Assembly: GCA_030066595.1 (NCBI GenBank)
Contig: JASJBI010000026.1
Location: 30,693-62,692, forward strand
DNA from: Alphaproteobacteria bacterium
GTDB taxonomy: Bacteria > Pseudomonadota > Alphaproteobacteria > JAJFFI01
Direction of reading: 5' to 3'
Length of the DNA stretch: 32,000 nucleotides
The translations under genes were made by a program, and so were the position numbers. The notes beneath the pieces were generated by a model, which saw only the letters and a program-made list of their open reading frames with translations, was not told the DNA's origin and made no database searches. Below are positions 3,314 through 18,006 of this stretch, in pieces; position 1 is the stretch's first letter; each line of letters opens with the position of its first letter.

Positions 3314-3733
3314 ATGCGTTCGGGTCGGATCAAATGCCACCGGGCCTAAGGGACTGTCCGGAAGAGTGAATCCCAGTAACCGGATTGGGGGCGCAGTCTC
3401 AATGCAGCCTGTATGCTCCGCAATACCCACTAAAGTGCTATCAGTGGAGTCCTTTCGAGCCGTCTCCGCGCGACCCAAGGCACGAAGACGGAGTCTCGAT
3501 TGAAGCCCGCGCAGGAATAGATGGCTCGGTCGGAAATCTCATCACCGGCTAATGCGACTTGTCCTTTGTTCCCTGAATAGATCGCCAAGACAGGCTGAGC
3601 ATCATTCAAGTTGTGAACCTTGACCGGTGCTTAAATCCTGCACCGGCCCCACCTATGCGTTCATCTTTTCTTAACCAGCCCTGTTTACTTCTTGTAAACC
3701 ATATTGGACTGCTTGTTGCAGAGGCGATATCAG

Positions 3734-4765
3734 ATGCTAAACCAGCGGCACAAAGTGCTCCTTGTCGAAGGCAAAGAGGAGCAGGCGGGCGATGTCGGAT
3801 CACGGCTGGAGCAAAAGTCCGGGGACCTTGGCGGTGTGGCGCACGCCGACTCAGGGTTCGAGGACGCATCCCGGATGGCCTCCGATATCCGCATCACGGA
3901 GACCGGATGGTCTGGCGCGACGCCTTATCTGGTGGCCCTCGGGAAAATCACCGCCTGCGTCCATCTTGAGCGCGGCGCGCGCATCGCGAGGCAGGCCGCA
4001 GATCAGTCGAGTCAGATCGCGTCTCAGTTCCTGGCCAATGTGAGCCACGAATTGCGGACGCCGCTCAACTCGATCATCGGCTTCTCCGATCTCATGCTGG
4101 CCGGCCTGCGCAGCGACGTTCGGGACGACGAGCAGCGCGAGTATCTGCGGTACATCCGCTCAAGCGGCGCGCATCTGCTCGAGCTGATCAACGGTATTTT
4201 GGATCTGTCCAAGGCGGAAGCGGGCCAGCTCGAGTTGGCGGTCGAGAAATGCGACGTGCGGGAGCTCTTGGATGTCACGGTCCGCGCGCTCGAGACGCAA
4301 GCCGCGGCCAAGTCCATCCGGATTCAGAGACAGCCCGTGGCCCGCGGCCTCGCGGTCATGGCCGACAAGATCAAGATCGGGCAGGTTCTCCTGAACCTGG
4401 CCTCAAACGCGGTCAAATTCACGGATGAGGGCGGGGAAGTCACGATCGCCGCCATCCGCATGACCAGCGGCGAGGTCCGGTTCACGGTTAGCGACACCGG
4501 CGTCGGCATGCCCGCCAGCATGATCCCCAAGGCCTTCGCCGCCTTCTCCCGGGCCGGCAACGCCTATACCACGCGCAGGAAAGCCGAGGGCGTTGGCCTG
4601 GGCCTGGCGCTGGCCAGGCGGCTGACCGAAATACATGGCGGAACCATCGCCATGGAGAGCGAAGAAGGCCGGGGCAGCAAAGTCACGGTGATGTTGCCGC
4701 CCGAGCGGACGACGGATCTGCCGTACCCCGAATCAAGCCCCGGACGGCGCGCCGACGCCAACTGA
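3734..4765 (+). CDS. Soluble sensor histidine kinase (HisKA + HATPase_c) with a short degenerate receiver-like N-terminus.
   Basis: Motifs present: H-box FLANVSHELRTPLNSIIGFSDLM, N-box LLNLASNAVKFT, G1 DTGVGM, G2 GVGLGLALARRL. I see no hydrophobic TM segment. I chose the start at ATG 3734 (MLNQRHKVLLVEGKEE), which is in frame within track ORF 3704..4765. Confidence 0.85.
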   Translation: MLNQRHKVLLVEGKEEQAGDVGSRLEQKSGDLGGVAHADSGFEDASRMASDIRITETGWSGATPYLVALGKITACVHLERGARIARQAADQSSQIASQFLANVSHELRTPLNSIIGFSDLMLAGLRSDVRDDEQREYLRYIRSSGAHLLELINGILDLSKAEAGQLELAVEKCDVRELLDVTVRALETQAAAKSIRIQRQPVARGLAVMADKIKIGQVLLNLASNAVKFTDEGGEVTIAAIRMTSGEVRFTVSDTGVGMPASMIPKAFAAFSRAGNAYTTRRKAEGVGLGLALARRLTEIHGGTIAMESEEGRGSKVTVMLPPERTTDLPYPESSPGRRADAN

Positions 4766-5010: not shown

Positions 5011-6549
5011 ATGGCGCGGGCGCCCCTGACGGTTCTTGTCGTCGCATCGCATACCGGCCAAGCCGAGCGATTTCAGGCCCTTCTCGAACGCCAGGACCCG
5101 ACGCGGATCCGGCTGCGGAGCTGCAGCCGGGCCAGCCAGGTCTTGGTCGAAACGACCGAGAAACAGGTCGACGCCATGGTCGTCGCCTTGGCGTCCGCCG
5201 ACAAGACCGGCGTCATGGACATCGAACGGGTCTGCGTGCTGGTGCCCGAGACGGCGGTTATCGTGCTGACCGAGGTCGAGGACGAGGACCTAGACCGCCA
5301 GCTGGTCCAAGCCGGGGCCCAGGACGTCATCGCCGCCGCCGCGCTCGACTCCCCGGACCTGGTCGCCCGTATCCGGAACGCCGTCGATCGCCAGCGCCAG
5401 ATGGTCGAGCAGGCCACCCGCCGCCATCATCTGGAGGTCGCCAACCAGCGGTTCCGCAGCCTGATCAGCGACCGGTTCCGCAGCCTGGTCATGGACAACG
5501 CCGACGCCATGCTGGTGCTCGACAAGGGCGGCAACACCTGCTTCATCAACCCGGCCGCGGAGACGCTGCTGCGCGACCAGAGCGGCGACCTGATCGGCAG
5601 CCGGTTTGCCAACCTCTCCGATATCGATGAAGAGACCGAGATCGAGGTGCCGCGTGCCGACGGCTCGGTGCTGGTCGCGGCCATGCGCATCATGGACACG
5701 GTTTGGGAGGGCGAGGACGCCTACATCGTCACCCTGCACGACATCACCGAACGCAAGCGTCTCGAGCGGGCCATGCGGGCCGCCAAGCAGACCGCCGAGC
5801 GGGCGAGCAAGATGAAATCCCTGTTCCTCGCCAATATGAGCCACGAGCTGCGCACGCCGTTGAACGCCATCATCGGCTTTGCCGAGCTCATGGAAGCGCA
5901 GGCGTTCGGTCCGCTTGGGCACAAGAAGTATCTCGAATACGCCCGCCACATCACCCAAAGCGGCGGGCACCTTTTGGAGCTGATCAACGGGCTCCTGGAT
6001 CTCTCGAAGGCGGAGGCGGGCAAGCTCGAACTGCGTCGCGAGGAGTTCGATCTCGGCACGGTGATCCGCGGCACGGTCGAGGTCATGGAGGCCCGCGCCC
6101 GCCGCGGCAAGGTCCGTCTGCGCACGGAGCTGCAAGACGAGCCCTTCCGGGTGATGGCCGACCGGCTCAAGATCCGGCAGATCATGCTCAATCTGTTGTC
6201 GAATGCCGTGAAGTTCACGCCCGAGGGCGGCGAGGTGCGGGTTTCGGTCGCCTGCGGCCGCGACAATCAGATCGAGATCCAGGTGATAGACACCGGGATC
6301 GGCATGCCGAGGGATCAGATCCCCAAGGCGTTCGCGGCCTTCAACCAGGTGGAGAACGCCTGGACCAAAAAGCTGGCCGAGGGCAGCGGCCTGGGCCTGG
6401 CGCTCACCAAACGGTTGGTCGAGCTGCACGGCGGCACGATCAAGCTGACCAGCGAGGTGGGCGTCGGCACGACAGCCACGGTGCTGCTGCCCTGCAAGCC
6501 GCAAAGCGGCGCGAAGTCCGAGAACGAGACCCTGCCGGTCACCGCCTAG
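5011..6549 (+). CDS. Sensor histidine kinase with an N-terminal receiver-like (pseudo-receiver) domain, a PAS-like region, HisKA and HATPase_c.
   Basis: The ORF is 512 aa. Motifs present: H-box FLANMSHELRTPLNAIIGFAELM, N-box LLNLLSNAVKFT, DTGIGM, GSGLGLALTKRL. A PAS-like segment reads FRSLVMDNADAMLVLDKGGNTCFINPAAETLL...ITERKRLE. The N-terminus, LTVLVVASHTG...DAMVVALASADKTG...VIVLTE, resembles CheY but lacks the acidic residues. Confidence 0.85.
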   Translation: MARAPLTVLVVASHTGQAERFQALLERQDPTRIRLRSCSRASQVLVETTEKQVDAMVVALASADKTGVMDIERVCVLVPETAVIVLTEVEDEDLDRQLVQAGAQDVIAAAALDSPDLVARIRNAVDRQRQMVEQATRRHHLEVANQRFRSLISDRFRSLVMDNADAMLVLDKGGNTCFINPAAETLLRDQSGDLIGSRFANLSDIDEETEIEVPRADGSVLVAAMRIMDTVWEGEDAYIVTLHDITERKRLERAMRAAKQTAERASKMKSLFLANMSHELRTPLNAIIGFAELMEAQAFGPLGHKKYLEYARHITQSGGHLLELINGLLDLSKAEAGKLELRREEFDLGTVIRGTVEVMEARARRGKVRLRTELQDEPFRVMADRLKIRQIMLNLLSNAVKFTPEGGEVRVSVACGRDNQIEIQVIDTGIGMPRDQIPKAFAAFNQVENAWTKKLAEGSGLGLALTKRLVELHGGTIKLTSEVGVGTTATVLLPCKPQSGAKSENETLPVTA

Positions 6550-7273: not shown

Positions 7274-9550
7274 CTAGGCGCGCCGCAGATGATAGGCAGG
7301 CGTCGTGCCGAACGCCTTGGGCAAGGTGAGGTTCCCGACATATTCGAGTGCAATCCCGCCTACGTTCTCCGCCGTGGCAACCGCCGCAAAAGACTCGCTG
7401 ACATAGACATTTCCAGGCGGAGTCACGGGTTCGATCCGAGCCGCCCGGTTGACGTAAGCGCCGCAGTACGTGACGCCGCCGGTAACGGGATCCGGCTGCG
7501 CGTGCACCGGCCCACAATCTATGGACAGCCGCAGACCGAGATGACGGGCGAGCCCCACGGCTGCCCAGTCAAGCGCATCGAAGCGATCGCGCAAATCCAA
7601 CCCGAACCGACAAGCCGACCGCACATCGGCCAGCACAAAGAAAAGACCGTCCCCAGTCGTACGACGATGAAGAACCGAAGCATCGTATTTCTGTGCGACT
7701 TCAGCCACGGGCCGCAAGAAGTGAGTCATGAAGTCCGGCAGAAGATGATCCGGGAGATCGCTGTAACCGCTCGTGTCAGCGAACAGCATTGCCCGGATTC
7801 GCCGTGCGCTTGCCAGGTCGCTTTCGGGTTCGAGGCCCGACGTGGCAGATTGCGAGACGTCTGTCTTGGTTGCGTTCGAGCGGTTGCCGATCGGGTGGAC
7901 TTTGCGGCCTTCACGATGCCACAGATCTGGCAACGACGCGGCGGGACCAGGACGGATTTCACCGGCAAGCGAGATCCTTTCTACGACAGTCGAGAGCGAC
8001 CGAGCCCGCAGAGCCGCTAGGCCGTCCGCGTGGAGGTCGGCAAAGTACTGAGCCTCGACCAGGCCCTGCGGTTCGAAATCACACAGGGCCAGAACGCGTG
8101 CCGCATCTGAGACAAGTCGATCGAAGCGCTCGGCCCACTGATTGCCGAGCGCTCGGCGAATCCAGGACTCCTTGAAGACCTCTGCCGGATAGGGGAGCAC
8201 CACATTGATCTCCGCGTCCTGGCGGTTCAGTTCCTCAAGAAAAAGAAGTTCGGCGACGCTTGCCGCCGAAGCATATCCGACGGACGCGCCGAGTCCGTCC
8301 AGACACCTGGCGATCTCATCAGCCAAGGCGCTTTCCGACATGTCCGACTGAGTGATCTCGCCCTCTTGTTCTGCTCTCCACGAGCCAAAGACCACGCAGG
8401 ACGGCGCGGGTATGAGTTCCTCAACACGCAAGTCGATGTCGCCGGTGTGATCCAGGACAAGCGCGGCTTGGCGACGGCTAGCGCCAAGGTCACGGTCCCG
8501 CCGTTGACCACGCGCCGCGCGCGCCGCGAGCCCGTAGTACTTCCTGCTTCGTGCTTCATCCCGCTGGATCAGCGCTGCCTCCCCCAGTGTCGCCAGCGGC
8601 CAGTAGTGGTCCTGATGAGCATCCTCCGCGTTGAGTTGCTCTTCACAAATAACCTCCACCTCCCGAGCAAGACGCTGAGCCAGATCTGCGTCTGCGCTTA
8701 GGAGAGCTGTCATAGCGGCGTTGATGCCGTTGTAGGAGGCGTGGTCCAGCCGACCTTCCTTTCGGGCGTTCTTGTAGGCGCCGAGATAGGCGCTATGCGC
8801 CTTTCTCATCTGGCCGGTACGTTGGTCCTGATCCTGCGCGCTGAGTGCGAGCTCCTTGAACGTGCGACCGAGCAGCCCAAGGGTCTCTCCGTCCCGCAGC
8901 CCTTGTTGGTGCAGACCCGTCAGGATCGCATGCGCGGGCATCAGGGCACCGCACTGGATGAGCGCAAGGCCCATCAACTGATTGAGCCGGAGCGCAAGGT
9001 CCCGTTCGTCTTTGGCGAGCTGATCCAGTCTCGCACCTGCCGGAAAGTGGGCCAGCCCCTCGGCGGCGACGTCATATGCGAACAATGGATCGATCCGCAC
9101 GGCCCGCTCGGTCAGGTCTCGGTACAGACGGGGATGGCTGGACCAAAGATCGTGGTCACGATGCAGCCATACACTTCGCAGGTTCGCCGACGTGGCGCGG
9201 CGAGGATCACTCAGGATCTCAGTGATGTCTTGCGGTTCGGCGCCGGCAGCTGGTAGCCGGTTGCCTTGGCCAGGGTTGATCTCGAAGCCCAACGCGAGAA
9301 CCGCCTTGAGTGTCTCTGACGCGCTTTGCAGATCGTATTCCTTCTCGGAGTCCGGCAGTTCGCTGAACTCGATCAGGTTTGGGTGTGTCTTTTGGTCTTG
9401 GTTGCGATCCGTACCGTGACGCCAACCCTCGGCAAGCCGTCTGGCGGCCCAAACGTCGTGCAAATGGCGCGCCAGCTCCGCAAGCCGCCGCTCCAGGGAT
9501 TCATCGAGCTCAATCTCCGACGTGTCTATCGGTGTCGGACGATAACCCAT
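7274..9550 (-). CDS. Multidomain signalling protein: RyR domain + DUF4071/MAP3K-TRAF-binding-like TPR region + Rossmann/SLOG-like module + class III adenylate/guanylate-type nucleotidyl cyclase.
   Basis: The track ORF is 7274..9661. I place the start at ATG 9550 (MGYRPTPID), because the upstream 37 codons are an Arg/Ser/Pro-rich extension. Domain motifs are listed in the four sub-features that follow. Confidence 0.85.
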   Translation of the reverse strand: MGYRPTPIDTSEIELDESLERRLAELARHLHDVWAARRLAEGWRHGTDRNQDQKTHPNLIEFSELPDSEKEYDLQSASETLKAVLALGFEINPGQGNRLPAAGAEPQDITEILSDPRRATSANLRSVWLHRDHDLWSSHPRLYRDLTERAVRIDPLFAYDVAAEGLAHFPAGARLDQLAKDERDLALRLNQLMGLALIQCGALMPAHAILTGLHQQGLRDGETLGLLGRTFKELALSAQDQDQRTGQMRKAHSAYLGAYKNARKEGRLDHASYNGINAAMTALLSADADLAQRLAREVEVICEEQLNAEDAHQDHYWPLATLGEAALIQRDEARSRKYYGLAARAARGQRRDRDLGASRRQAALVLDHTGDIDLRVEELIPAPSCVVFGSWRAEQEGEITQSDMSESALADEIARCLDGLGASVGYASAASVAELLFLEELNRQDAEINVVLPYPAEVFKESWIRRALGNQWAERFDRLVSDAARVLALCDFEPQGLVEAQYFADLHADGLAALRARSLSTVVERISLAGEIRPGPAASLPDLWHREGRKVHPIGNRSNATKTDVSQSATSGLEPESDLASARRIRAMLFADTSGYSDLPDHLLPDFMTHFLRPVAEVAQKYDASVLHRRTTGDGLFFVLADVRSACRFGLDLRDRFDALDWAAVGLARHLGLRLSIDCGPVHAQPDPVTGGVTYCGAYVNRAARIEPVTPPGNVYVSESFAAVATAENVGGIALEYVGNLTLPKAFGTTPAYHLRRA
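7292..7804 (-). other. Class III nucleotidyl cyclase catalytic domain.
   Basis: The first metal Asp is in MLFADTSGYS (nt 7760..7789). The second metal Asp is in TTGDGLFF (7637..7660). The transition-state Asn/Arg pair is in YVNRAARIE (7430..7456), followed by PGNVYVSESF. Confidence 0.8.
7967..8410 (-). other. Rossmann-like (SLOG/LOG-like?) module.
   Basis: The segment reads CVVFGSWRAEQEG...LGASVGYASAASVAELLFLEELNRQDAEINVVLPYPAEVFKES. It resembles a recurring G-x-A-x-GAD-x-LF-x-E...VVLPF module found upstream of cyclase domains in other bacterial proteins (from memory). Here the GAD is degenerate (SVA). Confidence 0.35.
8417..9214 (-). other. DUF4071 / MAP3K TRAF-binding-like helical (TPR-like) region.
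   Basis: The motifs LGLLGRTFKELA and HASYNGINAAMTALL match the GRxYKD and YYPGINAATL signatures that I recall for this family. The surrounding sequence is helical. Confidence 0.5.
9278..9508 (-). other. RyR (ryanodine-receptor repeat, PF02026-like) domain of the cyclase protein.
   Basis: The segment reads LAELARHLHDVWAARRLAEGWRHGTDRNQDQKTHPNLIEFSELPDSEKEYDLQSASETLKAVLALGFEI. It matches the RyR pattern as I remember it: H-x-x-W, a GW-x-x-G motif, HP-x-L-V/I-x-[FY], and L-x-x-x-EK-x-x-D. Confidence 0.7.
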
Positions 9551-9739
9551 GTGCGAGATCCTTCGAGCAGGGGGAGCAGCATAGCAGATCCCCAAAGGCG
9601 AGCGGGCAGCCGGAACAGGCGAGCTGCTGCGTCGTCGACGGCGACCGGCCTGGCGTCTCACATCCGGCGAAATATATCCCGGAGTGGCAGCACTTATGGG
9701 GGCGAAACCAAGCCAATGTCCGTCCGGGTCCCGAATCTA

Positions 9740-9751
9740 GGAAAATTTTCC
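9740..9751. promoter_or_regulatory. Perfect 12-bp palindrome GGAAAATTTTCC in the divergent promoter region.
   Basis: The sequence is its own reverse complement. It lies in the 357-nt gap between the divergent cyclase and RyR mini-protein genes. Confidence 0.3.
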
Positions 9752-9839
9752 AAATCATGTGGAATCTGGCCTATACGTCTCTCCGTTGATTGCCGCAAGA
9801 AACGGCTCGCTGGCAGAGACGTGTGACTTTCAACACATT

Positions 9840-9855
9840 CATTGGATTTCCAATG
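9840..9855. promoter_or_regulatory. Inverted repeat CATTGGA-TT-TCCAATG upstream of the RyR mini-gene.
   Basis: It has 7-bp arms and a 2-nt centre. It ends 52 nt upstream of ATG 9908. Confidence 0.3.
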
Positions 9856-9907
9856 ACTAGGATTGCAACCATGTCCCACGTCTCAACAGTGCCGACTGGA
9901 TGGATAC

Positions 9908-10201
9908 ATGGCTCCCAAAAGCAAAGACCGCCTCGATACCAATGCGGTCGAACTCAACCAGCAATTCCTGGGATACGTCGAGGTGCTCGCCGCCCATATC
10001 CACCACAATTGGCTCGAGCGACGCGTGGCTGAAGGATGGGGACCTGGCAAGCAGCGGAATGACGACCGTATGACCCATCCGTGCATCAAACCGTACTCGG
10101 CGCTGCCGGAAAGCGAAAAAGAGTACGACCGGGAATCGGCGAGAGAAACGTTGAAAGCCTTGCTGGCCTTGGGATGCCGGATCACCGGCCCGGCCGGCTA
10201 G
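9908..10201 (+). CDS. Stand-alone RyR-domain protein (97 aa).
   Basis: The track ORF 9863..10201 starts at a TTG. I prefer ATG 9908 (MAPKSKDRLD...). The protein reads VEVLAAHIHHNWLERRVAEGWGPGKQRNDDRMTHPCIKPYSALPESEKEYDRESARETLKALLALGCRI, which aligns colinearly with the RyR domain of the neighbouring cyclase protein. Confidence 0.75.
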   Translation: MAPKSKDRLDTNAVELNQQFLGYVEVLAAHIHHNWLERRVAEGWGPGKQRNDDRMTHPCIKPYSALPESEKEYDRESARETLKALLALGCRITGPAG

Positions 10202-10289
10202 CTTCGTGAGCCCGTAGCGGACGCGCTGCCGCCTCCGGGCCGGTCAACTGGCAAGCCGCGACGCCGCGGATTTCAGGGCACGCCGGCAG

Positions 10290-12209
10290 CTATTCGAATA
10301 TCGCGAGGCAGGCGTCAAACAGATGCTCGTCGTGACGATCCAGGGATGGCCGCCGCGAAGCCTGGCCCTTGATACCTTCGAGGACCGACTGAATGAGCTC
10401 CTGGTCGTGGCTGGGCTCCTGAAATGCGTCTTGCATCATCAGCAGAGCGGTCACGCTGTCACGAAGCAGGCTCGGAAAGTGCCGCTCTTGAACGAGACTC
10501 TGGAATTCGGCAAGGGCCCTGTCTGCCAGCTTCTTCCGTTCACGTTCTCCCTGGCAAATGGCCAGTCCCACCAGCGCGGTCGCCTGCGCGTAGCGCAGCT
10601 CAATGGTCCGATGCCGGTCGTTTGAACCGGCCTCCTTCAACCCTTTTCGACAGTAATCCGCCGCCGCTTTGAAGGCTTTCTTCGCGTTCGTAAGGCCGTA
10701 CGCAGCCGCGCCATAGGCCTCGCTCTCCCTGAGCAACACGATTCCCATCAGCAGTTCCGGTGGCCAGGCAACAGCAAGCGCGTCCTTTCTTGTTGCATCG
10801 AGCAATGCCTTGGGAGGTTTTGGAAACTCGGCTGCAGGAGCGTCCTGTTCGAGCACGAGTCGTGTGCACTCGAGCCAGTGATAATAGTCTTCCCAGAGAC
10901 CGTCACCGCTGCGCTCGTCCTTGATATAGCCTTTCGGCGCAGTCTCATGGGCGCTGCGATGGTACGTCTCAGCGAGCTCAAGCGAGTTCTTTCGCTCGAC
11001 TCGCTTGTCGAGGCAGGAATAGACACGCGACAGCTCTCGATGCACGTTCCCCAGGCGCCTGAGAGAAGTTGCCCGTCTCTTGTGATCGTTACCGCGTTCA
11101 GCCAGTGAAGCTGCTCTGTCATAGAAGTTGATCGCAGACTGGAAATGCATTGCGGCGGCGGCGCAATCGTCCGCGAGGAATGAATCCCATCCGAGATCGC
11201 GACTGGCATTGCCGAGGCGCGCCAGAGTGATCTGCTCGCCCCTTCGATTGCCTATTTCCCGCTGGCTTTCCAAAGCCAACCTGTAGATACGGTCGGCCTT
11301 CTGGGCAAAACCACGGTCGCGCAAAAAGCTTGCGATGTTTCCGGGCAGCAACCCTCTGCCCCAGCGCCCATGCCTGAACTCGCTGAAGATCTCTAAGGCT
11401 CTTGAGAAGTTCTTCCGCGCGTCGTCCCACTGACCCAGCTTGCCGGACGCCCGCGCCAGGTCTGCATAGGCCAAGCCCCAATTCGGCCGAATGCTGATCT
11501 GCTCTCGCGGATCCCCATCCTCTTGCTGTTTGTTCCACTCTTCGAATTTCTCTACACCGGAGCAAAAATCATCGAAAGCACCCTTGGTGTCATAGTAGTA
11601 ATCGAGCTTCAGCCATCCGATTTCGTTTTGCCAGAGAGCTTCCTGCCAGTTGGCTCTCTTGCGCTCGTTCCTGACACCTTTAGCGATCTTGAGCGCTTCC
11701 TCCAGGTCCTGTCTTCCGCTGGCAATATCGCCTTGATAAGCCCTGCTCCATCCCAGGTAGCCGCACCACGTGCTCTCCTGTTCTCTCCAGCTTATCAAGT
11801 CGGGGTCCTCTTGCCCGTTTGCCTTGGACCTCTTGCGTGCGATCTTGAGGTACTCTGACGCCTTCTTAGGCCGCCCAACAAACAGGTAGGCGAGGCCAAG
11901 CCCGCCCTGATTGGCAACCTCGGCGGATGACGAGACTGGTTGCGAGCACGTCTCGTCCGCGAGTCTCTCCACAAGCTGGGTTCGCATTTCGATCAGTGCC
12001 TGGAGATAGCCCCAGGAAAGCAGATGGCTTGCGATGTCTTCGAGCGCCTGGCAAGCGCTTCGGCAATCGCCAGCGGACATCCGATGTTGGAACTCACTAA
12101 GCTGAGGCTCGACATCGTCGATGCTGTTCCACGTCTCGGGACTGGTGCGCAGTCTCAAGAAGTATTCCGCGGCAAGGCTCTCCAAGGTCGGCTGATTGTA
12201 GTTAGGCAT
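10290..12209 (-). CDS. All-helical TPR-like repeat protein (639 aa), probably the sensor arm of the upstream STAND NTPase.
   Basis: This is the only long ORF across the span. It contains repeated TPR-like A/G/Y/W-spaced helices, for example GLAYLFVGRPKKASEYLKIA, GLAYADLARASGKLGQWDDARKNFSRALEIF and LARLGNASRDLGWDS...AAAMHFQSAINFY. I see no enzymatic motif. The start is 17 nt after the stop of the NB-ARC gene on the same strand. Confidence 0.75.
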   Translation of the reverse strand: MPNYNQPTLESLAAEYFLRLRTSPETWNSIDDVEPQLSEFQHRMSAGDCRSACQALEDIASHLLSWGYLQALIEMRTQLVERLADETCSQPVSSSAEVANQGGLGLAYLFVGRPKKASEYLKIARKRSKANGQEDPDLISWREQESTWCGYLGWSRAYQGDIASGRQDLEEALKIAKGVRNERKRANWQEALWQNEIGWLKLDYYYDTKGAFDDFCSGVEKFEEWNKQQEDGDPREQISIRPNWGLAYADLARASGKLGQWDDARKNFSRALEIFSEFRHGRWGRGLLPGNIASFLRDRGFAQKADRIYRLALESQREIGNRRGEQITLARLGNASRDLGWDSFLADDCAAAAMHFQSAINFYDRAASLAERGNDHKRRATSLRRLGNVHRELSRVYSCLDKRVERKNSLELAETYHRSAHETAPKGYIKDERSGDGLWEDYYHWLECTRLVLEQDAPAAEFPKPPKALLDATRKDALAVAWPPELLMGIVLLRESEAYGAAAYGLTNAKKAFKAAADYCRKGLKEAGSNDRHRTIELRYAQATALVGLAICQGERERKKLADRALAEFQSLVQERHFPSLLRDSVTALLMMQDAFQEPSHDQELIQSVLEGIKGQASRRPSLDRHDEHLFDACLAIFE

Positions 12210-12226
12210 CGGTCGTTCCCATCGTC

Positions 12227-13843
12227 CTACGCTCTCTGGGGGATTTGGCCATAGGCATACTCCCGGTCGAGCGCGTGCAGGCTGTATTGGCGCGTGGCCG
12301 CGTTCATTTGCACGAAATGGCCGTTGACCAGCCGCCGCAGAGACGCGCGAACGTCCAGAGCGGGCAAGAAGGGCTGGGTCAGATAGGCGATCGCCGTTTC
12401 GTCAACCTGATCGTTAAAGACGGCGAGCGCCTCCATGACGCGTTTCTCGGGTTCTTCGAGGCGTCGGTACCCGGCGGCGACCAGAGGTTCCATAACCCCG
12501 GCGCTGAATACGGCTCTGTCCGCCAAGACTTCAGACAGATCGGTCGTCGGATCCTCGTACAACAGACCCGCGAGGATCTCGAGCGCCCGGGGTATGCCCT
12601 GCGTCAGTTTGGCCGCACGTCGCAGGTCGGCCTCCTTGGCGCTGCGCAGGCCAAGCAATCCCTGCGGATCCAGGTCACGCAACAGCTCGACCGCCTCGTC
12701 CTCGCCGAGCCCCTCGCTCAACGAGATCGTCCGCGTGGTTCGCAAGGCGGCGGCGGGCAGCCTCAGCTTCTCCTGCGACGTCACGATCAGCTTCGCGCCG
12801 CTCGGCTTGGTCACGCACTGCTCGACAAAGGCCCGAAGGCCTTTGTCCCGGATCGTGCCGTCCGCCTCCAGCTCGTCCTCGAAATTGTCCATGAGAAAGA
12901 CGTATGTGCCATCCGCCATGACCTCGATCAGGTATTCGGCCTTGGCGGCCAATGACATGGTCGTGTTGACCCAGCGGGCGGCGAGGCTGTCGGCGACCGG
13001 TCTTTCCAGGATCTTGGCGAGGTCCGAATAAAGCCGCTCCAGGGTTATCCGCGTGTTCTGGGCGCTCAGATAGACAATGCCGTTGATCGGGAGGCTGGCG
13101 CCGTTGCCGCGGACTGACATCTCGCCCTGTTCCAGTTCGGCCAGGAGGCGCGTGGCCAGGGCCGTCTTGCCCATACCCCCTCGGCCCAGAACGCTCACCA
13201 TGTGCACGCCGCCATCCAACAGATAGTCTCGGAGTTCCTCTTGTTCCCTTTCGCGGCCCTTGAACGTGTCCACAACATCCAGCGGCCGGACATTCACAAC
13301 GCCATGGCTGTGATGTTGGCGCCCACCCTGGGTCCCGAAGCGGATCTTGCTTTCCTTGAAGGCATCCAAGGAGCAGTCCAACTGCTCCTGCGTCCACTGC
13401 GCGATCGACGCGACCACCTGTTCCGCGAAATCCTTTTCATCCTTGAAGAAATGAACGACATGCGAATTGCAGAGCTCATGGCGCCACGCCGCAATCTTCT
13501 CGTGCTCCGAACCACGATCCACACATTCGGGATCCCAACGCACTTTCTGATCAAGCATGAAGATGAACCGCGCGAGTCCGGATCGGCATGCCTGCTGGTA
13601 TTCAAGCTCGGTGATGGAGCGTTCTTGGTCGGTCGGAATGTGTCCGTAATGCCAGGCAACGATCCCGATATAGACTTGGCAGGCGGCGACGTCGGCGAGA
13701 CATACGTCGAGCGGCCGCCCATCCTTGGCGGGGTAGTCTTCCATCGCTACGACGTCGTGTCGCATGCTCCTGAGAAAGTCATAGGCGGCCTGGCGATACT
13801 CTTGGAGATCGCTATACGTGGACGAAATGTAGATCTTCGCCAT
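12227..13843 (-). CDS. DUF4062 (TIR-like) + NB-ARC STAND P-loop NTPase (538 aa).
   Basis: The N-terminus is MAKIYISSTYSDLQEYRQAAYDFL...MEDYPA...CQVYIGIVAWHYGH...SITELEYQQA...FIFML, the DUF4062 pattern. Walker A is GRGGMGKT (nt 13163..13186) and Walker B is VFLMDNFED. Also present are LIVTSQ, the GxP motif TQGIPRALEILAG, and the MHD-like YSLHALDREYA 12 residues before the stop. Confidence 0.85.
   Translation of the reverse strand: MAKIYISSTYSDLQEYRQAAYDFLRSMRHDVVAMEDYPAKDGRPLDVCLADVAACQVYIGIVAWHYGHIPTDQERSITELEYQQACRSGLARFIFMLDQKVRWDPECVDRGSEHEKIAAWRHELCNSHVVHFFKDEKDFAEQVVASIAQWTQEQLDCSLDAFKESKIRFGTQGGRQHHSHGVVNVRPLDVVDTFKGREREQEELRDYLLDGGVHMVSVLGRGGMGKTALATRLLAELEQGEMSVRGNGASLPINGIVYLSAQNTRITLERLYSDLAKILERPVADSLAARWVNTTMSLAAKAEYLIEVMADGTYVFLMDNFEDELEADGTIRDKGLRAFVEQCVTKPSGAKLIVTSQEKLRLPAAALRTTRTISLSEGLGEDEAVELLRDLDPQGLLGLRSAKEADLRRAAKLTQGIPRALEILAGLLYEDPTTDLSEVLADRAVFSAGVMEPLVAAGYRRLEEPEKRVMEALAVFNDQVDETAIAYLTQPFLPALDVRASLRRLVNGHFVQMNAATRQYSLHALDREYAYGQIPQRA
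13394..13837 (-). other. DUF4062 / TIR-like putative effector domain of the STAND protein.
   Basis: This covers residues about 3-150 of the 538-aa protein; motifs are given in the parent feature. The assignment of DUF4062 to a TIR-like or nucleoside-deoxyribosyltransferase-like fold is from memory of the comparative-genomics literature. Confidence 0.55.
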
Positions 13844-14355
13844 TCGAGCCAGGCCTGCTTCGCGCTTGGTTCCGCAGGCGACCGGAACGTAGGGACGTCC
13901 GGTCGAAGCGTGTATTCACGCACGCAAGCGGGTTGGTCGCTACTCCTCTTGATTGGGCGGTCGCTCTCAGACTTATGCCCAATCTACCCTGCAATAAGAT
14001 TCAATCCAACTTACGCAATTCTTGCAACGTTAATGTGCGTTTTCTCACGATTCCGCCCGGTAACTCAAAAGCGATGGCCAAAAGACATCGATCGGCTCTT
14101 TGACAGTGTTGCAAGGGCTGAGGCGCGTTAGGCGCAGTCCTTCCTGCGGTCCTCAACTATATTTGGATCAACAGACGCGGCTCGCCCTCTTGCAGCGGGC
14201 GCTCGGCTTCAGCCGAGGGGACGCCGTTGGCGCCAGAGCCCAGGACCGTTCGCCTGGGGCTGTATCTCCGACTCGGTGCCGGCCATGTCTTCACGGCAGC
14301 CTCTGACCTTGAGCCGACATAAGGCGCGCCCAAGCAGACGCTCATCGCAATCAGG

Positions 14356-14997
14356 TTATCGTTCTGCTATCGCCAGTCTGAGCGCGAGGCCGGTGAACAC
14401 GAGCCCCGCCATCCGGTTCAGGATGAGCTGGGCCCGGGACGATGCTCTTAGCTTTTCGCCCAGAAGGCCCGAGAACCACGCGATTGATCCGAACACCAGC
14501 AGGGTGACGACGATAAACACGGCGCCGAAAGCAATGAGCTGCACAGTCAAGGAGCCGCGTGACGGATCAGCAAACTGCGGCAGGAAAGCGAGAAAGAAGA
14601 TCGCAACCTTCGGGTTGGTGATGTTCATAATCACGCCACGCGCATAGAGCTTTCCGCTGTGGATTCCGGCGCCGCCCTCTTCTGGAATTGACGTCGTTCC
14701 TGCCCGGAATGCCTGCCAAGCCAGATACAACAGGTAGGCGGCGCCTACGATCTTCAGCGCGGTGAACGCCAGGGCGGATGTCGCGAATATTGCCGCGACA
14801 CCGAAGGCGACGGCGATCGTGTGAACCAGCAGTCCCGTGGCGAGGCCGATCGTCACGAACAGCCCGGCGAGCCGGCCGTGCAGGGCAGACTGGGTCAGGA
14901 CAAAGATGTTGTCGGGTCCCGGCGCGAACGCCAAGGCAATCGAAGCTGCGGCGAAGACCGTCAAGGTCTCAATGGGAATTTGCAACAGGCTCATCAT
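14356..14997 (-). CDS. LysE/RhtB-family amino-acid efflux translocator.
   Basis: The ORF is 213 aa and polytopic. The N-terminal signature is AAASIALAFAPGPDNIFVLTQSALHGRLAG. The overall pattern of about six hydrophobic segments is typical of LysE/RhtB proteins. Confidence 0.85.
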   Translation of the reverse strand: MMSLLQIPIETLTVFAAASIALAFAPGPDNIFVLTQSALHGRLAGLFVTIGLATGLLVHTIAVAFGVAAIFATSALAFTALKIVGAAYLLYLAWQAFRAGTTSIPEEGGAGIHSGKLYARGVIMNITNPKVAIFFLAFLPQFADPSRGSLTVQLIAFGAVFIVVTLLVFGSIAWFSGLLGEKLRASSRAQLILNRMAGLVFTGLALRLAIAER

Positions 14998-15095
14998 GGG
15001 TGGTTGTCCGTTCCTCGGCGCCGGCGCATTGCCCGAGCTGTGTGAAACGGGAGTCTCCGGAGCTCTGCGTTGGCGATCGCCCGCGGTGTTTAGGC

Positions 15096-17919: not shown

Positions 17920-18006
17920 TGGTGCGGGTGGGGAGACTCGAACTCCCACTTCCTTGCGGAAACCAGATTTTGAGTCTGGCGCGTCTACCAATTCCGCCAC
18001 ACCCGC
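17920..18006 (-). tRNA. tRNA-Leu (anticodon CAA), class II with a long variable arm and encoded CCA.
   Basis: The minus strand reads GCGGGTGTGGCGGAATTGGTAGACGCGCCAGACTCAAAATCTGGTTTCCGCAAGGAAGTGGGAGTTCGAGTCTCCCCACCCGCACCA. The acceptor stem pairs GCGGGTG with CACCCGC. The anticodon stem-loop is CCAGA-CTCAAAA-TCTGG. The T-arm contains GGGAGTTCGAGTCTCCC. Confidence 0.9.

Follow-up and report, generated by a model that had tools for sequence, protein, structure and literature searches.

In the Thoeris anti-phage systems, the SLOG domain of the effector ThsA binds 3′ cyclic ADP-ribose (3′cADPR), and the type VIII effector ThsI, which consists of a CMP hydrolase and a TPR, is activated by canonical cADPR (10.64898/2025.12.03.692087). 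The ThsI TPR is described there as the TPR predicted by Aravind and colleagues for TIR signalling, and we infer that it is the domain known as TPR-S. Phage RyR proteins also bind cyclic ADP-ribose (ADPR) isomers (2′cADPR, 3′cADPR and cADPR), and one of them, RyDEP, cleaves them as well (PMC13232231; 10.64898/2026.06.04.730250). Here, a 32,000-nucleotide stretch of the genome of an Alphaproteobacteria bacterium (assembly GCA_030066595.1, contig JASJBI010000026.1, positions 30,693 to 62,692), referred to as the window, was found to encode on its minus strand, at 7274..9550, a protein of 758 residues in which an RyR domain, a TPR-S solenoid, a SLOG-fold domain and a class III nucleotidyl cyclase domain follow one another. 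The gene is read, with moderate confidence, as encoding a signal-regulated class III cyclase that receives the signal of a TIR-type (Thoeris-like) anti-phage system and provides its output. It is a probable output module of such signalling because the family to which it belongs usually adjoins TIR immune genes.

The gene runs from an ATG at 9550 to a stop codon at 7274-7276, and the sequence AAGGA lies about 8-13 nucleotides (nt) 5′ of the ATG. Its product is a 100% full-length match to the database entry P0001, labelled 'MAG: RyR domain-containing protein [Alphaproteobacteria bacterium]', MAG denoting a metagenome-assembled genome. An earlier note on this DNA had read the domain order as RyR, a DUF4071-like helical region, a Rossmann-like module and a cyclase, and this order was recovered by Pfam and by an AlphaFold2 monomer model built on 72 homologues (predicted local distance difference test score, pLDDT, 90.6; predicted template modelling score, pTM, 0.82). 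The model is laid out as a helical RyR unit, 14 helices at residues 105-370, an alternating beta-alpha region at 384-554 and a C-terminal alpha/beta region at 584-757. The RyR domain, of the Repeat12 type, covers residues 3-92 (9275..9544, minus strand; Pfam PF02026, E 1.6e-29, 102 bits). The all-helical TPR solenoid, DUF4071/MAP3K_TRAF_bd-like, covers residues ~105-370 (8441..9238, minus strand; Pfam and model) and includes the TPR-S core PF20308 at residues 175-280 (8711-9028, minus strand; E 3.6e-13, 50.4 bits against a cutoff of 27.6). The Rossmannoid domain at residues ~380-555 (7886..8413, minus strand) was assigned to the SLOG fold, in a degenerate form, by Foldseek on the domain model, and the class III nucleotidyl cyclase domain at residues 582-758 (7277..7807, minus strand) by a family profile against the PDB, by Foldseek and by motifs.

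The alignment to Pfam models proposed in the earlier note gave a divided result. RyR and TPR-S scored above their cutoffs, whereas Guanylate_cyc (PF00211) reached 17.9 bits, under the cutoff of 21.9 and over residues 642-726 only, and DUF4071/MAP3K_TRAF_bd (PF13281) did not match the window protein at E<0.1. Homologues are recognised by both models: among the ten representatives scanned, Guanylate_cyc scored 27-30 bits, above the Pfam cutoff, and PF13281, whose cutoff is 24.1 bits, matched the same helical region at, for example, 43.3 (P0004), 34.8 and 37.1 bits, so that 'DUF4071-like' is a fair description of this region. In a PDB search, a profile of 20 cyclase-domain sequences gave E values of 1e-12 to 1e-6 against class III cyclases of known structure. 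With the cyclase model, Foldseek returned target-normalised template modelling (TM) scores of 0.75-0.85 to CyaB, Rv1900c, Ma1120, RhGC and others, and the best matches included CyaB 3r5g at E 1e-8. The C-terminal domain is accordingly modelled as a class III cyclase homology-domain fold, with its beta-alpha-beta-beta-alpha-beta palm.

Cyclase residues were assigned by hidden Markov model (HMM) alignment to 3mr7, 3et6, 3r5g and others, together with a codon check by translation; all codons lie on the minus strand. The metal-binding Asp positions are D592 in FADTSGYS (7775-7777) and D634 in RTTGDG (7649-7651), and the transition-state residues N701 (7448-7450) and R705 (7436-7438) are both found in YVNRAARIE. 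The metal motifs and the Asn/Arg pair are intact, as had been proposed from the letters, and the canonical Arg of RIGxHxG (R674) and Lys of KGxG (K745) are kept in the window protein too. The alignment also placed R630 (7661-7663) on the Lys of 'KTTGDG', and T694 (7469-7471), seven residues ahead of N701, at the second specificity position, which is Asp in adenylyl cyclases; the Arg and the Thr had both been pointed out before.

A first search yielded 71 homologues with 32-39% identity and the same architecture. D592 and D634 were each kept in 69 of 70 relatives and R705 in 67 of 69, and the metal Asp pair, R674, R705, E707 and K745 were retained in ~98% of about 150 sequences. Because D592, D634, R674, R705 and K745 are near-invariant across these relatives, their conservation argues for a working cyclase under selection for catalysis. 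The specificity positions vary far more. Of 70 relatives, 59 have Asn at position 630, five have Glu, four Arg and one Lys, so Arg is not a trait of the family; position 694 was Asn in 44 of 69, Thr in seven and Asp in five. The specificity pair of the family majority is Asn/Asn, and position 701 was Ser in 55 of 69. The residue combination of the window protein, D-R-D-R-T-N-R-K, was unique among 152 sequences, and its closest relatives (P0002, P0003, P0006 and P0035) have an R/K/H...D pair with Ile or Val at the position of Asn701. Arg630 is real, but it is the mark of a small divergent subgroup in a family that is overall even less canonical, and by this comparison the window protein is an atypical, more 'canonical-looking' member.

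The purine-specifying pair, Lys/Asp or Lys/Thr for ATP and a Glu/Cys-type pair for GTP, is not matched by R630 and T694. Because Arg630 together with Thr694 fits neither the adenylyl nor the guanylyl code, the substrate base of the cyclase is not assignable from sequence. Thr at the second specificity position is normal for class IIIb adenylyl cyclases, and by this norm Arg630 alone is truly unusual. The earlier caution that cyclic AMP (cAMP) should not be assumed as the product is sound, and one precedent exists in the cytidylate cyclase EaPycC, which has the metal Asp residues D102 and D146 and the specificity residues F100, R142 and Q144 (PMC11224242). R142 of EaPycC stands four residues before D146, as R630 does before D634; the likeness is partial, since Q144 of EaPycC corresponds to T632.

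The RyR domain of the window protein also matched Repeat12 of RyR1-3 and RyR-like structures of B. thetaiotaomicron in the PDB search. A putative ligand tetrad was located by codon check on the minus strand at H31 (9458-9460), W34 (9449-9451), H56 (9383-9385) and D73 (9332-9334). The spacing 3/22/17 (H-x2-W-x21-H-x16-D) is identical to that of H75/W78/H100/D117 in RyDEP and of H129/W132/H154/D171 in RyR Tad, the equivalence being one of spacing alone and not of direct alignment. RyDEP contacts 3′cADPR through H75, W78, H100 and D117, of which H75 and D117 form the glycosidase dyad (PMC13232231). RyR Tad bound 3′cADPR at 43 nM and both 2′cADPR and cADPR below 1 µM, with ligand contacts at H129/W132, H154/K147 and K170/D171 (10.64898/2026.06.04.730250). 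Mutation of contact residues in RyDEP and RyR Tad abolished or greatly weakened activity or binding (PMC13232231; 10.64898/2026.06.04.730250). The tetrad was intact in 53 of 80 genome-encoded relatives of the window protein. The two phage proteins thus resemble the window domain in their PF02026 membership and in the H-x2-W...H...D residues at identical spacing. They differ in being small viral counter-defence proteins, whereas the window RyR belongs to the host and is joined to TPR-S, SLOG and cyclase domains, which by analogy implies a role in sensing or regulating rather than in evasion.

By tblastn, the window RyR domain also matched sequences in many Pseudomonas F116/H66-like phages as well as in Arthrobacter and other phages. 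The phage DyoEdafos, which encodes RyDEP (gp78), was not among the matches in the phage collection searched. Several of the phage matches fell under genes called 'alanyl-tRNA synthetase' or 'Anti-CRISPR protein', labels that are probably misannotations of RyR-domain anti-Thoeris genes.

The module between the TPR solenoid and the cyclase domain was identified as SLOG by fold comparison alone, sequence searches having given nothing: the window protein and ten homologues had no Pfam match in this region, and a 20-sequence middle-domain profile retrieved nothing from the PDB even at E 10. The model of this domain (pLDDT 85) had its best Foldseek matches in YpsA 2nx2, DprA, ShosA and the LOG protein YvdD. 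The match to YpsA 2nx2 was obtained at E 2e-5, with TM 0.54 query-normalised and 0.61 target-normalised. The Rossmann-like module of the earlier note is real, and the model places it more specifically in the SLOG fold, with the family motifs lost in this protein. Most relatives carry the SLOG motifs GHMxD-x-PGR...PRFP, GYASAACGSD, VVLPY and VWDG..GDGPGGTAS, the last of which is reminiscent of PGGxGT in LOG proteins. These motifs are replaced or deleted in the window protein as well as in the four relatives nearest to it. The positions G390, H391, D394, R398, R402, G432 and D434 read SWEESVE in the window protein and GHDRRGD in 119 of 152 relatives, and the GDGPGGT strand motif is missing from the window protein. 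SLOG is degenerate here and probably a further ligand site in most relatives.

The protein had been described as free of any known ligand-binding sensor. This view is outdated, because a capacity to sense NAD-derived signals (NAD, nicotinamide adenine dinucleotide) is known or predicted for each of RyR, TPR-S and SLOG. Three candidate sensors for such signals are present in the protein, the SLOG being degenerate in this member.

The family comprises at least 558 confirmed genome matches, among the matches listed, in a pattern scan of species-representative genomes. The listed matches were found in Acidobacteriota (many in Pyrinomonadaceae), filamentous Cyanobacteria, Verrucomicrobiota, Planctomycetota, Poribacteria and others, with a patchy distribution across phyla. 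Database labels of the family are generic, either 'TRAFs-binding domain-containing protein' or 'class 3 adenylate cyclase'. Neighbouring genes were counted as the 92 same-strand neighbours at 80 genome loci with gaps of <400 nt, and their products were scanned against Pfam. The most frequent families were TIR_2 (n = 29), ThsB_TIR (n = 13), TIR (n = 6), AAA_16 (n = 6), DUF4062 (n = 5) and nSTAND1 (n = 5), along with several TPR families of 5-7 each. TIR-type proteins are by far the commonest operon-like neighbours of the family, and with a TIR HMM built locally from the neighbours a TIR-like gene was detected within 7 kb in 44 of the 80 loci. The suspicion, raised in the earlier note, that the protein belongs to a conflict system is strongly supported by these TIR-rich neighbourhoods.

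At individual loci, TIR+TPR, TIR+NACHT and ThsB_TIR genes directly abut the cyclase gene. The gene of P0002 (locus L001) lies between genes for TIR+FGE-sulfatase, TIR+TPR and TIR+NACHT+FGE-sulfatase proteins, adjoining a type I restriction-modification system. That of P0005 (L004) is followed by genes for a 907-residue RyR protein and a TIR+TPR protein, and those of P0024 (L005) and P0045 (L008) by an O-methyltransferase gene and a ThsB_TIR gene. The gene of P0048 (L009) is followed by genes for a TIR protein and an nSTAND1+TPR protein, with transposases and a HepT/MNT pair around. Ten TIR neighbours that were examined carried TPR, Sel1, WD40, CHASE2 or DUF4062 modules and no domain that binds cyclic mononucleotides (cNMP). 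Since they carry repeats and no cNMP-binding domain, their domain content fits sensors and producers of a signal rather than receivers.

Several single loci displayed further arrangements. In L010, from a Bipolaricaulia MAG, a gene directly downstream of the family member (9299-11062, plus strand) encodes an LSDAT_prok SLOG + SLATT + DUF4231 protein and is followed by TIR-bearing genes; SLATT and DUF4231 are membrane-effector domains, and the locus looks like a multi-effector TIR system. In L039 (9435-10910, plus strand), one neighbouring polypeptide combines TIR_2 (residues 8-103) with DUF4062 (residues 199-275), a fusion that supports the interchangeability of both domains in these systems. 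A cyanobacterial neighbour in L055 (9604-12861, minus strand) consists of three tandem TIR_2 domains fused to CHASE2. In the family member P0070 (1212 residues), the TPR-S-SLOG-cyclase core is preceded by an extra canonical cyclase and a STAND NTPase of the AAA_16/NACHT type, which brings its cyclase domains to two.

In the window itself, genes for a DUF4062-STAND protein, a TPR protein and a stand-alone RyR domain all lie within 4.3 kb of the cyclase gene. The first of these (12227..13843, minus strand) encodes a DUF4062-STAND/NB-ARC-type NTPase of 538 residues (DUF4062 at E 3e-26 over the full-length profile; AAA_16, NB-ARC and NACHT). DUF4062 is a TIR-like NADase, known from the anti-phage Swarozyc system (10.64898/2026.05.01.722283), and by this analogy the protein is a candidate infection sensor and source of an NAD-derived signal. 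Seventeen nt downstream on the same strand follows the gene of a 639-residue TPR protein (10290..12209, minus strand; Pfam TPR_12, TPR_2 and TPR_1; PADLOC 'TPR' PDLC01169, E 3e-9), which is probably the sensor or partner of the DUF4062-STAND protein. This NLR-like pair resembles the TIR and nSTAND1-TPR pair found beside the homologue in L009.

The stand-alone RyR open reading frame (ORF; 9863..10201, plus strand) is divergent and encodes 112 residues from a TTG, an internal ATG being possible. It was matched by Pfam RyR at E 2.1e-26 and by a local RyR HMM at E 4.5e-30. Its tetrad was found as H47-x-x-W50 by script, and the His (+22) and Asp (+17) were read from the sequence, giving the same spacing as in the cyclase protein. 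By analogy to the phage proteins, its product could be a signal sponge, a glycosidase or a partner of the cyclase protein, the first two amounting to a host RyDEP-like buffer or off-switch. A second RyR gene was seen in only 5 of 90 loci and was rejected as a core component of the family. An additional RyR frame of 192 residues, uncalled in the source annotation and with an N-terminal RyR match at E 1e-32, was noticed in L006 (1244-1819, plus strand) upstream of the gene of P0013.

The GC content is 0.58-0.63 over 9-15 kb of the window and mostly 0.64-0.68 further out, and this dip at ~9000-15000 suggests a horizontally acquired island. The low-GC stretch is not adjoined by an integrase or a tRNA boundary, the nearest and only tRNA being a tRNA-Leu at 17920-18006. 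In a promoter and terminator scan of 6.5-14.4 kb, the counts equalled the shuffle expectation. The outer flanks contain histidine kinases, a MarR regulator, a LysE exporter and oxidoreductases. Two histidine kinase genes (3704-4765 and 5011-6549, both on the plus strand) precede the 3′ end of the cyclase gene, and one of them encodes a REC-PAS-HisKA-HATPase hybrid.

The working of the system may be depicted as follows. Infection would switch on a neighbouring TIR-family NADase, which in the window would be the DUF4062-STAND protein with its TPR partner and in most relatives a TIR protein with TPR, Sel1 or WD40 sensor repeats, and this enzyme would release ADPR or a cyclic ADPR isomer. The RyR domain and/or the TPR-S solenoid, and in most relatives also SLOG, would bind the ADPR-type molecule, and binding would rearrange or dimerise the protein, bringing together two C-terminal cyclase domains to build active sites. 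Single-repeat RyR proteins are back-to-back dimers (PMC13232231; 10.64898/2026.06.04.730250), and such dimerisation may be what couples ligand binding to cyclase dimerisation. The cyclase would convert nucleoside triphosphate (NTP) to 3′,5′-cNMP, either as a second-tier messenger or as a toxic depletion of NTP, and the small divergent RyR protein may buffer or degrade the signal and so set its threshold. In its full form this would be a two-tier cascade and a new type of Thoeris, in which an ADPR-type signal of TIR or DUF4062 acts through RyR and/or TPR-S on a cyclase that emits a second, chemically distinct and possibly non-purine cNMP or collapses the NTP pool; this extended version is put forward only tentatively.

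Several observations weigh against a receiver and output role of this kind. With a profile of the TPR-S and SLOG module, the best 120 of 439 matches were all cyclase fusions, with or without RyR, and effector swapping on this module was not seen among them. Since these best matches are cyclase fusions of which most have RyR and roughly a fifth do not, TPR-S-SLOG-cyclase is the core of the family and RyR a frequent N-terminal addition. RyR cannot be the only sensor, because it is missing from roughly 15-20% of family members. No TIR-like gene was found within 7 kb in 36 of the 80 loci, some of which are on truncated contigs. TIR was absent beside P0006 (L002), P0013 (L006), P0020 (L007) and P0035 (L003), and in the first three of these loci the neighbours were ordinary or mobile-element genes. 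A TIR neighbour accompanied 33 of the 53 relatives with an intact RyR tetrad and 11 of the 27 without, a weak association that was not used as evidence. In the window, the cyclase gene adjoins the DUF4062-STAND/TPR pair and is not co-operonic with it, the opposite-strand RyR gene lying between; the nearest TIR-type candidate, DUF4062-STAND, is two genes away. DUF4062 has so far been shown to make linear ADPR and not a cyclic isomer (10.64898/2026.05.01.722283). Neither PADLOC (2.0) nor NCBIfam scans recognised the cyclase protein. Finally, no cNMP-binding family was present among the 25 most frequent families of the 92 neighbours, and the step downstream of the cNMP is unexplained because no cNMP receptor is conserved nearby.

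The principal rival reading reverses the direction of signalling. In a manner similar to Pycsar or Pucsar, the cyclase protein would sense infection through TPR or RyR and make a cNMP that activates the TIR or DUF4062 proteins as effectors. Class III-fold defence cyclases that signal to TIR proteins are established, both from PycC to PycTIR in Pycsar (PMC11224242) and through cGMP to PucTIR in Pucsar (10.64898/2026.08.12.744502), EaPycC uses an Arg, likewise four residues ahead of its second metal Asp, for specificity (PMC11224242), and the adjacency to TIR genes is equally compatible with either direction. The reversed direction is nevertheless disfavoured, since the TIR partners have sensors of their own and are devoid of cNMP-binding domains: this holds for the ten TIR neighbours, which carry their own repeat sensors or STAND NTPases, and cNMP_binding is not one of the 25 most frequent neighbour families. 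The PADLOC Pycsar models gave no match, and the cyclase is fused to just the domains for which binding of TIR products is known or predicted. This direction is considered unlikely.

The other rivals are lesser ones. The protein might be an ordinary regulatory adenylyl or guanylyl cyclase whose TPR and RyR regions serve protein-protein contacts or ATP/ADP sensing with no link to phage defence. Large regulatory N-termini are a common feature of class III cyclases, the two histidine kinases lie nearby in the window, the closest relatives have near-canonical K/R/H...D pairs (P0003, for instance, has K...D), several loci have housekeeping neighbours, and Repeat12 of the animal RyR channel binds ATP and ADP (10.64898/2026.06.04.730250). 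Such a housekeeping role is hard to reconcile with the very strong enrichment of TIR, DUF4062 and STAND beside family members, with the restriction-modification, toxin-antitoxin, transposase and integrase genes that surround some loci and, among the matches listed, with the patchy spread of the family across phyla, and it is judged rather improbable.

A still less probable reading takes RyR as a RyDEP-like glycosidase, so that the protein and the stand-alone RyR would form a host off-switch for the glycocyclic ADPR signal (gcADPR) and the cyclase would couple it to cNMP levels. By spacing, the RyDEP dyad H75/D117 does correspond to H31/D73 and to the equivalent pair in the ORF at 9863-10201. 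However, cleavage of the signals was seen with none of the eight RyDEP homologues that were tested; six of these, in spite of their conserved residues, only bound them (PMC13232231); the conserved catalytic cyclase is also left unexplained by this reading. Least of all do we expect the cyclase-like domain to be a pseudo-enzyme, a nucleotide-binding or dimerisation scaffold that leaves toxicity or signalling to another part or partner. In favour of this reading, inactive cyclase domains are described from conflict systems of a related kind (PMC7159879), the residues at the specificity positions are non-canonical and the transition-state Asn gives way to Ser in most relatives and to Ile or Val in the closest. 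Against it, the window protein has the complete Asn/Arg pair, and the catalytic set from the metal Asp pair to K745 is kept in the family at the level given above.

If the cyclase is the receiver and output of TIR-type signalling, one polypeptide wires TIR/NAD-derived signalling to cyclic-mononucleotide signalling, two branches of bacterial immunity hitherto treated as separate (Thoeris and Pycsar), and a generically labelled family with genome matches in the hundreds gains a function. Host RyR domains would then be cellular equivalents of the RyR sponges and glycosidases found in phages in 2026, and the protein would offer a tractable bacterial model of ligand control through an RyR Repeat12 domain. 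The family would also be a candidate source of non-canonical cNMPs, given Arg/Thr here and Asn/Asn in most relatives.

Among the known systems, the Thoeris effectors ThsA (SIR2-SLOG, type I) and ThsI (CMP-hydrolase-TPR, type VIII) are like the cyclase protein in joining, in one polypeptide, a sensor-type module to a nucleotide-acting output, and both they and the cyclase family are encoded beside ThsB-like TIR genes. The window differs in its predicted class III cyclase output, the added RyR, the degenerate SLOG and a candidate DUF4062-STAND producer in place of a classical TIR. In the accessible part of the survey of types I-XI, no cyclase or RyR effector is listed among ThsA-ThsL (10.64898/2025.12.03.692087). 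The Pycsar and Pucsar cyclases PycC and PucC share with the window protein the class III fold, non-canonical base residues and a defence context with TIR proteins. Pycsar cyclases pair with cNMP-binding-domain effectors, however, and no such domain was found by Pfam scan among the window neighbours, nor in the ten TIR neighbours or the 25 most frequent families. Unlike in Pycsar and Pucsar, the window cyclase is C-terminal to three sensor-type domains, and it has no PADLOC match. With CyaB of P. aeruginosa (3r5g), Rv1900c of M. tuberculosis (1ybt) and Ma1120 of M. avium (4wp8), the window protein shares the metal Asp pair, the Asn/Arg pair, the RIGxHxG Arg and the KGxG Lys. It deviates from these canonical cyclases by Arg for Lys and Thr for Asp, by an unrelated regulatory architecture and by its defence-island context. 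As for Swarozyc, the neighbouring gene of the window has a complete DUF4062 N-terminal to STAND, a layout already described for eukaryotic TEP1 and NWD1 (10.64898/2026.05.01.722283). KpSwz has a different auxiliary domain and acts alone through NAD+ depletion, whereas the DUF4062-STAND gene of the window has TPR, RyR and cyclase genes beside it. Each of the domains was already known, and what is probably new is TIR-based signalling with a cyclase-type receiver.

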